Positions 45,853 to 52,408 of a stretch of 64,000 nt of DNA are shown here, in pieces. The translations under genes and the position numbers were made by a program. Under the pieces are notes generated by a model. That model was not told the origin of the DNA. It did not search any database and saw nothing but the letters and a program-made list of their open reading frames with translations. Where the stretch lies: positions 27,620 to 91,619 of the forward strand of contig CAIWVP010000141.1 of the NCBI GenBank assembly GCA_903916195.1, read 5' to 3'. The stretch is from an uncultured Verrucomicrobiota bacterium (GTDB taxonomy: Bacteria > Verrucomicrobiota > Verrucomicrobiia > Limisphaerales > UBA9464). Within the stretch, counting starts at the first letter, position 1, and each line of letters begins with the position of its first letter.

Positions 45853-45939
45853 CGGCGGCCGCTAAAATGCAGCTTGCCGCAAAGGGGTCGCGACACCATA
45901 TATCCCCGCGCATTTCGCAACTTTAAACAGAATCTGACT

Positions 45940-46173
45940 ATGGCTGACCTCGCCAACCGCTACCAAGAGAACGTCACCGGCAAGTATTTCGTCGACAACC
46001 AGTGCATCGATTGCGATCTCTGCCGCGAGACCGCTCCCCAGAATTACACCCGCTTCGACGACGGTGGCTACAGCTACGTCAAGAAGCAGCCCGAGACCCC
46101 CGAAGAAGAGGCGGCCTGCAAGGAAGCCATGGAAGGCTGCCCGGTCGAGGCGATCGGTGACAAAGGAGCCTGA
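45940..46173 (+). CDS. Single-cluster ferredoxin
   Basis: CIDCDLC ... CPVEAI; 77 aa, acidic. Confidence 0.93.
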   Translation: MADLANRYQENVTGKYFVDNQCIDCDLCRETAPQNYTRFDDGGYSYVKKQPETPEEEAACKEAMEGCPVEAIGDKGA

Positions 46174-49087: not shown

Positions 49088-49219
49088 CCGTTGCCGCGCG
49101 TCGGCCGGCGATCCGTCCCGCCGGAAGCCCCGGGTCCCGCTTCGTTCTCCGATGATGATATCGAGGGACGGAACCTCCGGGCTGGTGCCTGTCCCGGTGT
49201 TCAGCCATTCTTCGTGTGC

Positions 49220-49555
49220 ATGTTCCAGAAGGGCCAGAAAGTGGTTTGCATCGACGACGAGTTCCCGCCGCATGCGCACGAGCTGTTCGACCGGGTCCCG
49301 AAGAAGGATTCGGTCTATACCGTCCGGGCGATCTATATCGGACGAGGCAACTACACCAAGGACGAGAGCGGGAAGAAGGACGGCGAGATCGGCGTCCTTC
49401 TCGAAGAGATCCGCAACCCGGCCGATCCGTCGCTGCGCGCGGGTCTGAACGGTGAGCTGGGATTCAATTCCGAGAGATTCGCCCCGTTGCTGGACAACGA
49501 GGACGAGATCCTCCGGACCGCCGAGAAGGAAGACAAAGACCTGGTGCCGGCCTGA
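49220..49555 (+). CDS. Hypothetical protein (small beta-barrel-like; GQKVVC.DD, YTVR, LEEI.NP, GF..ERF)
   Basis: 111-aa ORF with strong coding-like codon bias. Confidence 0.7.
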   Translation: MFQKGQKVVCIDDEFPPHAHELFDRVPKKDSVYTVRAIYIGRGNYTKDESGKKDGEIGVLLEEIRNPADPSLRAGLNGELGFNSERFAPLLDNEDEILRTAEKEDKDLVPA

Positions 49556-49635: not shown

Positions 49636-50901
49636 TCAGTGCGCTGCCTTGCCGGAGACCTCGGCGGCGTGCTGGGAGAACGATTTGCCCCGGCCCGTCG
49701 GGGCGATGACGGAATCGATGATGCCCCGCTCGAACTCGTCCCACATCGGCGACATGCCGCGGAGCTTCGTGGCGATCTTGGCGAAGGTCTCGACCGTGTA
49801 GTCGATGTCCTCTTCGGTGTTCATCATGCCGAGGGTCATGATGATGTTGCCCTGCGCGAGCGCGTGGTCGAGGCCGATGGCGCCGAGCACGTGGGAGACC
49901 TTGAGCGACTTGCTGACGCAGCTCGAACCGCTCGCGACCGCGATGCCGTTGAGGTCGCAGAGCAGGAGCTGGCCCTCGCCCTCGATGAACTCGGTGGAGA
50001 GGTTGAGGTTGGTCGAGACGCGCTTCGGCCCGGGTTCGGCGCCGTTGAGCTTGATGTAGGTGATCTTCGACCGGAGGCCGTCCCACAGGCGCTTCTGCAG
50101 ATGCGCGGTATGGGCGATGCGCTTGGGCAACTCGGGGAGCGCGATCTCCGCGGCCATGCCGCCACCGACGATGGCGGGGACGTTCTCGGTGCCGGCGCGG
50201 CGTCCGCCTTCCTGCACGCCGCCGTGCATCATCGAGACGATGCGGGCCTTCTTGTTGCGGTAGAGCACGCCCACGCCTTTCGGTCCGTAGAACCGGTGCG
50301 GAGAGAAGCTGACCAATGCCGCGCCAAATTCCTTCACATTGATGGGCAGCCAACCGGCGCTGGCCTCGCAATCGACGTAGAGCGGCACGCCCTTCTCGGC
50401 GCAGACCTTGCCGACCTCGCGCATCGGCTGGACCGTGCCGATGTCGTGGTTCACATGGTGGACGGCGACGAGGACGGTCTGCGGGGTGATGGCGGCACGC
50501 AGTTCATCCAGCTTGAGCACGCCCTCGGCATCGACGCCGACGCGGGTGCAGGTCCAGCCCTGCTTCTCGAGGAACTCGATAGAATTGATGACGCTCGGAT
50601 GCTCGGTCGCGGAGATGACGAGGTGCTTGCCTTTGCGCTCGTTCGCGTAGGCCACGCCCTTGATCGCGAGGTTGGCGGACTCCGTGCCGTCGGAGGTGAA
50701 GAAGATCTCCTCTTCGCTGTCGGCACCGATCAGCGCCGCCATCTGTTGACGGGCCTTCTTGAGGGCATCGCGGACGCGCAACCCGTGCTGGTGGAGCGAC
50801 GACGGGTTGCCGAAGGCCTCGGTGAAGAACGGCTTCATCGCGTCGAAGACTTCGGGCAGCACCGGCGTGCTGGACTGATGGTCGAGAAAAACGTGGCGCA
50901 T
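49636..50901 (-). CDS. iscS: IscS/NifS-family cysteine desulfurase homolog lacking the PLP lysine
   Basis: GNPSS.H, TES.NLAIKG, EHPSV, YGPKG.G, GG.QE.G.RAGTEN, SGSSC, SP.W; SPHR in place of SGHK. Confidence 0.9.
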   Translation of the reverse strand: MRHVFLDHQSSTPVLPEVFDAMKPFFTEAFGNPSSLHQHGLRVRDALKKARQQMAALIGADSEEEIFFTSDGTESANLAIKGVAYANERKGKHLVISATEHPSVINSIEFLEKQGWTCTRVGVDAEGVLKLDELRAAITPQTVLVAVHHVNHDIGTVQPMREVGKVCAEKGVPLYVDCEASAGWLPINVKEFGAALVSFSPHRFYGPKGVGVLYRNKKARIVSMMHGGVQEGGRRAGTENVPAIVGGGMAAEIALPELPKRIAHTAHLQKRLWDGLRSKITYIKLNGAEPGPKRVSTNLNLSTEFIEGEGQLLLCDLNGIAVASGSSCVSKSLKVSHVLGAIGLDHALAQGNIIMTLGMMNTEEDIDYTVETFAKIATKLRGMSPMWDEFERGIIDSVIAPTGRGKSFSQHAAEVSGKAAH

Positions 50902-50920: not shown

Positions 50921-51244
50921 TCAGGCGTTGGGCAGGAAATAGAAACGGAAGCCGCCTTCGCGCAGCAGGAGGAAACCACGCACGGTCTCGTCCCCGAACA
51001 CCTCGTCCAACACCTGCAGGTTGGCTGCTTGCGGGTCGAGTTCGTGCCGGCCCAGGTCCATGGCACCCACCCCGAAGGCCACAGCGAGGTCGAAGCTCTC
51101 TTCCGGGTTCAAGGCGACGAAGACGTTGGTCACGACGGTCGAGCCTTCCGGGACCTTGGCGTAGTCGGACGCGGGATATTCCAGGCCGTCCAAGACCTTT
51201 TGGGAGAAAGGACCGATGGCGATGATCTGGGCGGCGGATTCCAT
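50921..51244 (-). CDS. Hypothetical protein between iscU and iscS
   Basis: 107-aa acidic ORF ending GFRFYFLPNA; stop 19 nt upstream of the iscS start. Confidence 0.7.
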   Translation of the reverse strand: MESAAQIIAIGPFSQKVLDGLEYPASDYAKVPEGSTVVTNVFVALNPEESFDLAVAFGVGAMDLGRHELDPQAANLQVLDEVFGDETVRGFLLLREGGFRFYFLPNA

Positions 51245-51318: not shown

Positions 51319-51338
51319 CCATCGGGGTCGGCTCCGGT

Positions 51339-51767
51339 TCAGGCCGCGACGGTCTCCGCCTGACCTGCTTTGGCAGCGGCCTCGGGGTGCTTCTTCATGT
51401 AGTCCTCCAGCGCGGCCTTGAGCGCTTCCTCGGCGAGGACAGAGCAGTGGATCTTCACCGGGGGCAGGCCGCCGAGGGCGTCCACGACCTCTTGGTTCGA
51501 GAAATCCATCGCCTCGGCGATGGTGCGGCCCTTGATGAGCTCGGTGGCCATGCTGGAGCTGGCGATCGCCGAGCCGCAGCCGAAGGTCTTGAAGCGGGCG
51601 TCCTCGATCTTGCCGTCCTTGATCTTGATGGAGATCTTCATGATGTCGCCGCAGGCGGCCGCGCCGACCTCGCCCACGCCGTCGGCGTCCTTGATGTCGC
51701 CCATGTTGCGGGGATTCATGAAGTGTTCCATGACCGTCGGATTGTAAAGGGTATAGGTATCGCTCAT
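51339..51767 (-). CDS. iscU: Fe-S cluster assembly scaffold IscU/NifU-N
   Basis: HF.NPRN.G, ACGD, FKTFGCGSAIASSS, LPPVKIHC. Confidence 0.97.
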   Translation of the reverse strand: MSDTYTLYNPTVMEHFMNPRNMGDIKDADGVGEVGAAACGDIMKISIKIKDGKIEDARFKTFGCGSAIASSSMATELIKGRTIAEAMDFSNQEVVDALGGLPPVKIHCSVLAEEALKAALEDYMKKHPEAAAKAGQAETVAA

Positions 51768-51810: not shown

Positions 51811-52332
51811 TCAAGGGGTCGCGGCCAAGTGGGTCGCGGTCGCGGTCGCGGTCGCGGTGGTCCGTTGCGGACGGAAGACCATGGGCATGCGGGAGCGGGC
51901 TCGGGCGTCTTTCACCAGGCCGGCAGGGATGTGCCGGCCGGCGAGCTGGGCCACGGTGGTTCCGGCGAAGACTTCTTTCACCTTGTCCTGCGCCTCGGAG
52001 AACAAGCTGCACAGCGCGCATCCCCCTGCGTGCTCGCAGCCGGCCTCTTCGTCGAGGCAACGGGTCAGCGCCACCGGGCCTTCGACGGCCTCGATGACTT
52101 CGAGCGCGGTGATCAGCGCCGGGGACCGGGTCAGCACGAAGCCGCCGCCGGATCCGCGGCTGGATTTCACCAGGCCGGCGCGGGCGAGGCTCTGGAAGAT
52201 CTTGCCAAGGAAGCTCACGGGCACGTCCTCCTCGCGGGCGATCACGTCCAGCATCGCGACCTCGGCCGGGCCTCGCCGGGTGAGGGCGAGAAGGCCGAGC
52301 ATGGCGTATTCGCTGGCGCGGGTGACTTGCAT
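51811..52332 (-). CDS. Rrf2 family transcriptional regulator (IscR-like, three Cys)
   Basis: wHTH with SFL.KI.Q.L..AGLV.S.RG..GGF.L; C-x6-C-x5-C. Confidence 0.92.
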   Translation of the reverse strand: MQVTRASEYAMLGLLALTRRGPAEVAMLDVIAREEDVPVSFLGKIFQSLARAGLVKSSRGSGGGFVLTRSPALITALEVIEAVEGPVALTRCLDEEAGCEHAGGCALCSLFSEAQDKVKEVFAGTTVAQLAGRHIPAGLVKDARARSRMPMVFRPQRTTATATATATHLAATP

Positions 52333-52350
52333 CTCGGGGTTCTTTTCGTG

Positions 52351-52408
52351 AACCGGACTGATTCAGTCCGGTTGCCGGTCACGTTAGTCGGCGGCACCTC
52401 GGTGTCAA
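52351..52408 (-). promoter_or_regulatory. Promoter and 11-1-11 palindromic operator of the rrf2-isc operon
   Basis: Minus strand TTGACA-N16-TAACGT, then perfect IR AACCGGACTGA-T-TCAGTCCGGTT at 52351-52373. Confidence 0.85.

Follow-up and report, generated by a model that had tools for sequence, protein, structure and literature searches.

The stretch of DNA considered here, 64,000 nucleotides from an uncultured Verrucomicrobiota bacterium (contig CAIWVP010000141.1, positions 27,620 to 91,619; the whole stretch is called the window), carries on its minus strand a small cassette in the order rrf2-iscU-orf-iscS*. IscS* is the label used for the 421-residue IscS homolog encoded by the last gene; residue numbers are its own, with E. 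coli IscS numbers where stated. The protein has lost the Schiff-base Lys together with three other active-site residues, retains the loop Cys, and is encoded beside an intact IscU-type scaffold. The IscS*-IscU pair likely stands in for SUF as the main iron-sulfur (Fe-S) assembly unit of these bacteria, a reading that rests on sequence and on gene distribution. The gene and the positions on which the argument turns are these:

49636..50901, minus strand: IscS*, an IscS/NifS-fold protein in which the Schiff-base Lys is absent (ATG at 50901, stop at 49636, 421 residues, unbroken).
50446..50448, minus strand: His152, at the site of E. coli Asn155 (alignment).
50362..50364, minus strand: Ala180, at the site of E. 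coli Gln183 (alignment).
50293..50295, minus strand: Arg203 (codon CGG), at the site of E. coli Lys206 (alignment).
49918..49920, minus strand: Cys328, the loop Cys, retained (motif ASGSSCVS).
49840..49842, minus strand: Ile354, at the site of the substrate-carboxylate Arg354 (alignment).
49639..49755, minus strand: the C-terminal segment, residues 383-421, equivalent to the IscU-binding helix of E. coli plus a conserved extension (alignment).

The IscS/NifS type of IscS* was assigned by profile, by sequence matches to solved structures and by predicted fold. The protein scores 217 bits against Aminotran_5 (PF00266) and has the long Cys loop of type I enzymes, and its AlphaFold model (predicted template modelling score 0.79) superposes on E. 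coli IscS (3LVM) with a Z score of 39.6 and a root-mean-square deviation of 2.9 over 369 aligned residues. It falls under all of the NCBIfam desulfurase equivalog cut-offs (413.6 versus 530.75 for TIGR03402 and 373.4 versus 643.2 for TIGR02006) and is placed outside the active IscS/NifS family. The motif at the Lys site, residues 198-209, reads SFSPHRFYGPKG. All of the motifs quoted in the original prediction are present in the reading frame, including the CGG codon of Arg203: DCEAS (177-181), TSDGTES (69-75), HVNHDIG (149-155), GNIIMTLG (351-358), EHPSV (with His101) and MSPMW (383-387). With counterpart residues taken from an alignment to E. coli IscS 1P3W, the retained positions are His101 (E. 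coli His104), Asp177 (E. coli Asp180), Thr73, Ser200, His202, Thr238 and Cys328. The change in TSDGTES is a weaker sign than was first supposed; the motif is there, but intact enzymes often have Gly at E. coli position 75, and Asp71 occurs in only 27 of the 42 cassette-type proteins.

The K206A and Q183E mutants of E. coli IscS are reported to lose activity and R354K is reported to keep it (PMC9978102), and IscS* is thus predicted to be inactive mainly because the Lys and the Gln are gone. That it is dead as a cysteine desulfurase, as first proposed, is almost certain. The further proposal that it works independently of pyridoxal 5'-phosphate (PLP) does not find support, given that several cofactor contacts stay in place and that the Archaeoglobus fulgidus protein is described as holding pyridoxamine 5'-phosphate (PMP) without the lysine (PMC8918507); non-covalent cofactor binding of this kind is possible for IscS* as well.

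The altered active site is a shared and maintained character. Among the 120 matches listed for IscS* (80-100% identity, the window's own protein among them, several from named Verrucomicrobiota), Arg203, His152, Ile354, Cys328, His101 and Asp177 each occur in 120 of 120, Gln occupies position 180 in none, and relatives encode the Arg with all four CGN codons. Across 80 metagenome loci, site 203 is Arg in 73, His in three, Lys in one and uncovered in three, while Cys328 is present in all 80. The 42 cassette-type proteins have Arg203 in 37, His152 in 41 and Cys328 in every case. The ratio of nonsynonymous to synonymous substitution rates (dN/dS) is 0.062 and 0.080 against two genomes of the same genus, and 0.05-0.32 in the 35 computable of 38 comparisons. 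The conserved clade beside iscU that the original prediction called for is thus borne out, with dN/dS well below 1, and these comparisons confirm IscS* as a conserved pseudoenzyme under purifying selection. A miscall or an isolated decaying copy is ruled out by the same shared residues, the 80 metagenome loci and the low dN/dS. The Lys203 members of the cassette type (L005, L290-L293, L222) and the three metagenome His203 proteins still lack the Gln, the Asn and the Arg, and a probable account of the Lys is an Arg-to-Lys reversion inside the clade. One IscS* family (L144, L146, L148, L188, L189) has Gly or Gln at 203 and has lost His101, while Cys328 and low dN/dS persist.

Upstream of iscS* the cassette holds three further genes:

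50921..51244, minus strand: a 107-residue open reading frame (133 residues if read from the ATG at 51322) without a Pfam, NCBIfam or Atlas match.
51339..51767, minus strand: the IscU-type scaffold, 142 residues (TIGR03419, 196.2 bits versus a cut-off of 187.9).
51811..52332, minus strand: a regulator of the Rrf2 family with four Cys (92, 99, 105, 108; TIGR00738, 107.2 versus a cut-off of 73.3).

The scaffold has its full set of ligands and companions (Cys39, Asp41, Cys64, LPPVK, His107, Cys108). The predicted iscU neighbourhood holds well beyond the window, as iscU lies upstream in 51 of the 55 metagenome loci with at least 1 kb of upstream sequence, and the four exceptions have an altered Cys loop and a tail that is short or untraceable. 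Among the genomes sampled from the order, IscS* is found in 37 of the 37 with this IscU type and lies within 2.5 kb of it in 29. The association extends to the surfaces by which the two proteins would meet. E. coli IscS is reported to contact IscU through residues 309-316, 347 and 379-391 (PMC2854127). Glu309, Trp387 and Phe390 are present in all 42 cassette-type proteins and decayed in 32 members without an adjacent iscU, in which the C-terminal segment is shortened or drifting; the Trp/Phe helix is absent from nine of nine intact NifS-type paralogs. The Cys loop (322-336) is likewise nearly invariant in the iscU-linked copies and drifts in unlinked ones, although Cys328 itself remains in 32 of 32 of these outer members (against 25 for His101 and 20 for His202). 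That IscS* and IscU are partners in the main assembly route is quite probable.

The distribution of SUF points the same way. In the genome to which the window belongs (96% complete), the cassette IscU is the only NifU_N match, and no SufBD, NifU C-domain, SufS, SufU or SufC orthologs were found; a hidden SUF or SMS system was rejected there for want of SufBD, SufS, SufU and SufC orthologs. None of five genomes tested had a SufS over its cut-off, and SufE occurred in one of five relatives tested. Within a sample of 201 genomes from the class, SufBD was not found in 11, which comprise 10 of the 12 cassette genomes and one of the 189 others, itself 91% complete. A sample of 151 genomes from the order gives the same contrast, with 28 of the 37 genomes that have the IscU-IscS* pair yielding no SufBD, versus three of 114 without it (11 unlisted negatives being derived by subtraction from the listed positives). 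Two of these 28, G289 and G301, are single-contig genomes. An RpoB tree covering 27 of 30 hand-picked genomes requires nine changes for the state without SUF, of which at least six are forced by well-supported branches; most simply, the ancestor had both systems and one or the other was lost repeatedly.

Other parts of the assembly machinery are dispersed. The window's genome encodes two A-type carriers, Mrp/ApbC and SufT elsewhere, none of them inside the cassette. Of 22 cassette genomes, 21 have an HscB-like gene; it is also present in 15 of 15 genomes with a suf-linked second IscU and in none of 15 with neither, so that it tracks any IscU-type scaffold (36 of 37 with, none of 15 without). 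Its copy in the window's genome, a J-domain gene below the HscB cut-offs, follows iscA elsewhere (L307:3222-4344, G000:C13), unlinked to the cassette. Relatives that bear SUF (L155-L160, e.g., L157:8024-9066) often have, within the suf operon or close to it, a gene with a rhodanese domain and another, divergent IscU, besides SufU. This second IscU retains C-x-D, Cys and LPP-K-HC; 51 of the 201 class genomes have it, and it was not found in any of the 12 cassette genomes; its co-occurrence with outer IscS* is not tight among the matches listed, from which very divergent IscS* may be missing.

An inactive partner raises the question of where the sulfur comes from. Two intact desulfurases, with all active-site residues kept, are encoded in the window's genome, both unlinked to the cassette; the NifS-type paralog, which lies at G000:C50:39225-40496 and is 39% identical to IscS*, passes TIGR03402 (564.4 versus 530.75). 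Intact enzymes of the kind that the original prediction advised looking for are present, and the claim that a dead IscS* implies a different sulfur source is not supported, since with intact desulfurases at hand sulfur from cysteine is available in trans. A second gene of the IscS family occurs in 31 of 31 further genomes and is NifS-like, by 36-41% identity, in 30 of them (motifs checked in nine). In three cassette genomes (L162, L163, L165), not in the window's own, the intact NifS-type gene and sulfite reductase-cysH-cysD stand back to back. For the second intact desulfurase type, 15 loci (L169, L172-L178, L181-L187) share a single conserved neighbour, which we take to resemble a serine acetyltransferase. 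The window's genome also has an assimilatory sulfite reductase above its cut-off, cysH, cysD and cysK. Sulfide from outside is probably scarce, because the genome has three matches to heme-copper oxidase subunit I and the window's DNA occurs in lake and freshwater sequencing runs. A sulfur relay through TusA or DsrE was considered and rejected: TusA had no match in the window's genome, DsrE2 was found in one of five genomes tested and not in the window's own, and neither TusA nor DsrE was among the recurring neighbours of the cassette.

Taken together, these observations suggest a scheme in which IscS* is a dedicated partner of IscU. IscS* would dock IscU through the helix at 309-316 and the C-terminal helix, and Cys328 would swing into the IscU site as a transient fourth ligand and carrier of sulfur. 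Sulfur would arrive on Cys328 as a persulfide from the unlinked NifS-type enzyme, in the manner of a SufE- or SufU-like relay; this is the weakest step, and among the possible sources of sulfur it takes somewhat less than half of the probability. Clusters might then leave IscU through the HscB-like co-chaperone to the A-type carriers, Mrp/ApbC and SufT. For the scheme as a whole, a dead IscS* serving as the dedicated partner of IscU, replacing SUF and fed from elsewhere, the chances appear about even. A bolder version, on which the dead IscS of many aerobic Verrucomicrobiae is the essential adaptor in their sole Fe-S assembly line, with a Cys328 that, loaded by NifS or by endogenous sulfide, makes the only hand-over to IscU and so renders SUF repeatedly dispensable, is tentative and on balance rather doubtful.

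Several observations weigh against this scheme. The two genes lie apart or on different contigs in eight of the 37 genomes of the order sample that have both, and SUF is retained in nine; the class and order samples overlap, kin genomes are not independent, so that Fisher p-values make the contrast look too strong, and most of the genomes are incomplete assemblies. Lys stands at 203 in five of the 42 cassette-type proteins. At least 32 loci of the Arg clade have no adjacent iscU, many of them in SUF genomes without an IscU-type match, and their genes are still under selection (dN/dS 0.07-0.36 in eight pairs), and therefore some role independent of IscU probably exists there. Among these outer loci (L124-L153, L032), 12 sit immediately ahead of mrp/apbC, in many cases with pyrR-pyrB or a DUF59 gene next in line. 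The gene for the NifS-type enzyme is unlinked to the cassette in all loci examined. The intact enzyme could also serve IscU directly, since A. fulgidus IscS, with a chain that ends at about that point, binds IscU without the long C-terminal helix. Finally, A. fulgidus iscS2U2 is reported to have failed to complement an E. coli isc/suf mutant, also when sulfide was supplied (10.1101/2024.03.20.586028), although a separate NifS or HscB, which was not added there, may be the missing component.

Other accounts of the same cassette differ mainly in what they ask of Cys328 and of the intact desulfurase. Free sulfide could supply the pair, as has been proposed for A. fulgidus (PMC8918507), with IscS* lending Cys328 as a ligand and holding IscU, the cell's own sulfite reductase providing the sulfide, and no desulfurase taking part. 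The genes for such a supply exist in the window's genome and its nifS is unlinked to the cassette; moreover, in E. coli without iscS, sulfide is reported to bring about a rescue by way of IscU when oxygen is absent, and only a partial one in air (PMC13015791). The aerobic respiratory genes and freshwater habitat speak against it, as do the failure of iscS2U2 with sulfide (10.1101/2024.03.20.586028) and the retention of another IscS-family gene in each cassette genome examined. Free sulfide is accordingly an unlikely source here. IscS* might instead lie off the sulfur path altogether, holding, protecting or regulating apo or loaded IscU, shielding the cluster against oxygen or restricting flux, while NifS feeds the scaffold directly. 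IscU-like domains are the usual clients of NifS-type enzymes, the genome has an intact enzyme of type I, and an Rrf2 regulator heads the same cassette; the near invariance of the Cys loop when iscU is linked, and its drift when it is not, fit a chemical role for the loop and leave a pure holding function distinctly improbable.

A mixed dimer has also to be weighed, in which an intact NifS subunit makes the persulfide and an IscS* subunit offers the docking site for IscU. The IscU helix is kept in IscS* and absent from the NifS paralog, and Thr238, whose equivalent presumably completes the phosphate site of the neighbouring subunit, is kept in 119 of the 120 matches listed. Against this, the genes are unlinked, the proteins are only 39% identical, and genomes that lack IscS* can also carry the NifS type, such that little probability attaches to the mixed dimer. 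No more attractive is a changed chemistry, with the pocket (His101, His152, Asp177, His202, Arg203) holding a metal, an anion or non-covalently bound PLP or PMP, and serving a sulfur donor other than cysteine or the supply of iron. The replacements are conserved (His152 in 41 and Arg or Lys at 203 in all 42 of the cassette type), members without IscU are under selection with 12 outer loci beside mrp/apbC, and A. fulgidus IscS is reported to hold PMP (PMC8918507). However, the pocket drifts in the outer members, no donor gene is linked, and other lysine-less lineages have Asp, Gln, Leu or Thr at the Lys position; such a chemistry is very improbable. That IscS* is an ordinary desulfurase with unusual residues, or a lone decaying copy, is barely credible. 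Databases do call its relatives 'cysteine desulfurase', and Lys203 does recur in the five proteins noted above, but four active-site residues are lost together across a clade supported at 100/98, the Lys203 members do not regain the other three, and dN/dS is far below 1.

The dedicated partnership of IscS* with IscU has its closest parallel in A. fulgidus, whose IscS is reported to be inactive and is proposed to lend its Cys to the cluster (PMC8918507). Like IscS*, A. fulgidus IscS2 (PDB 4EB5, 4EB7, 4HVK; D199K, 4R5F) lacks the Lys, the Gln and the substrate Arg (its motifs are DATAS and GTLLLTLG), keeps the loop Cys and is encoded with an intact IscU. The analogy that the original prediction drew to this protein as a scaffold partner is supported on these grounds, and IscS* may well work in a similar way. 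Differences are nevertheless clear. IscS* has Arg rather than Asp, keeps the preceding His, has also lost Asn155, is 38% identical, has a longer C-terminal tail and stands apart from the Asp type in the best tree; and whereas A. fulgidus is reported to have a working SufB*C (10.1101/2024.03.20.586028), most genomes with the pair lack a SUF-type scaffold and the window's genome has terminal oxidases. Methanosarcina acetivorans IscS1 (MA0808), beside iscU as IscU1's partner, is likewise described as lacking the catalytic lysine (PMC7585200). The organism, an anaerobe, has three copies of iscSU and SMS besides (PMC13066941), and its IscS1 gene clusters with four further genes rather than with rrf2 and mrp.

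The best PDB sequence matches of IscS* (E about 1e-106) are 9WEP, 9WER, 9WEW, 9WF8, 9WFB, 9WFE and 9WFY, entered as 'cysteine desulfurase' of 406 residues. The five alignments listed are to variants of one protein, running from intact to Lys→Leu, Gln→Pro, Asn→Arg and Arg→Val, the same four positions as in IscS*, with Leu rather than Arg at the Lys site; the protein is absent from the listed fold-search matches. The literature searched yielded no paper on these structures, and the entries show that lysine-less IscS is already under study by others. Among complete systems, MIS (MisS-MisU) and E. coli ISC resemble the cassette in having an IscU-type scaffold with all ligands, a type I fold partner and an Rrf2 regulator, and iscA beside the HscB-like gene elsewhere in the window's genome adds to the likeness. 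The cassette differs in that its linked 'desulfurase' lacks catalytic residues, its order is rrf2-iscU-iscS*, and its carriers and co-chaperone are unlinked; its regulator falls below the IscR cut-off (TIGR02010, 74 versus 207.55). In MIS, described as the least studied system by a 2026 review (PMC13066941), an IscU-like protein is the sole scaffold, as it is in the window's genome, and that scaffold pairs with a cysteine desulfurase (PMC13066941), whereas the gene paired with iscU in the cassette is catalytically stripped and the intact enzymes are unlinked. MIS is further characterised by a lack of carriers and chaperones; the cassette has none, but two A-type carriers, the HscB-like gene, Mrp and SufT are encoded elsewhere in the window's genome.

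Whether the Arg clade arose on its own was examined with a wider set of IscS proteins, comprising IscS* itself, two paralogs from its genome, 29 class-level loci and the 133 out of 150 representatives that passed a length filter, less one poor row (164 rows). The losses go together: K, Q, N, R and C are all kept in 85 rows, and all 73 rows without the Lys retain the Cys. In an unrooted tree computed with the active-site motif columns removed, and with A. fulgidus represented by relatives (P0142, L051, L062), the Arg clade comprises 18 rows on one side of the 100/98 branch. Its neighbours are the lysine-less IscS of Nitrospirota, Chloroflexota and Caldimicrobium; together they are parted by a 99/94 branch from intact enzymes and from the A. 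fulgidus-like Asp type. A single clade for all lysine-less rows is not rejected by the approximately unbiased test (p 0.167). With all columns, FastTree places nearly all lysine-less rows on one side; with the motif columns removed, the Asp type falls among intact enzymes. The independence claimed in the original prediction is supported only in part: the best tree sets the Arg clade away from the A. fulgidus type, but the clade sits beside other lysine-less bacterial IscS and a common origin is not rejected; an origin independent of the archaeal Asp type is favoured. The IscU tree is too weak for naming a donor. Other lysine-less IscS (with Gln, Asp, Thr or Leu) were seen at 12 loci, 10 of them with iscU directly downstream, in Nitrospirota, Chloroflexota, Bathyarchaeia, Aminicenantes, Nitrospinota and Caldimicrobium (L034, L039, L051, L053, L054, L057, L058, L062, L063, L077, L098, L109). 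A contig scan with unspecific patterns gave one Arg-type locus in 80 among the matches listed, which sets no bound on the range outside Verrucomicrobiota.

The surroundings of the cassette vary. The 107-residue open reading frame is not a fixed member, with a 64% match in one genome of the same genus and none in the 80 metagenome loci. Downstream, mrp follows iscS* in 41 of the 60 metagenome loci with at least 1 kb on that side; in the window a convergent open reading frame at 49091-49555 on the plus strand, without a Pfam or NCBIfam match, occupies that site, and the genome has its mrp on a different contig. Some 3.5 kb away from iscS*, at 45874-46173 on the plus strand, lies a small ferredoxin-like open reading frame with CxxCxxC, a possible electron donor. 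Three small genomes without SUF (2.6-2.7 Mb; L300, L301, L311) have the cassette next to genes for Fe-S subunit-like proteins, which we take to resemble those of hydrogenase or NADH dehydrogenase, and one of them has DsrE2 elsewhere. A promoter scan at the cassette found none. Contigs from RNA libraries in four studies span parts of the cassette, two of them connect iscU with iscS*, and the long pieces end at 52257-52368, near the start of rrf2; without a DNA control, they give a weak hint of a single transcript.

Lysine-less IscS is already known from A. fulgidus and M. acetivorans, and what is added here is its repeated pairing with the loss of SUF in oxygen-respiring bacteria without TusA or DsrE. 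The literature searched, with most subscription papers and survey supplements outside its coverage, held no Arg-type or Verrucomicrobial lysine-less IscS, though supplements of phylogenomic Fe-S surveys could list such genes. How a lysine-less IscS-IscU works, and whether it does so in cells, was posed as a question by a 2022 review (PMC8918507), and the same question is posed by a 2024 preprint reporting failed complementation tests (10.1101/2024.03.20.586028). The cases studied so far are anaerobic archaea with back-up systems of the SUF type. The present bacteria are a different setting, as no scaffold system other than IscS*-IscU was found in dozens of genomes of mesophilic bacteria, single-contig ones among them, which provides natural evidence of function; they also suggest NifS, the HscB-like protein and Mrp as candidates for the partners missing from the failed complementation. 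At a practical level, many Verrucomicrobiae genes annotated 'cysteine desulfurase' are probably misannotated. More broadly, the genomes give evidence that IscU paired with a dead IscS can take the place of SUF in bacteria that respire oxygen, and, if the bolder version of the scheme is true, this would be a distinct mode of Fe-S biogenesis in which catalysis and scaffold docking are split between two paralogs.

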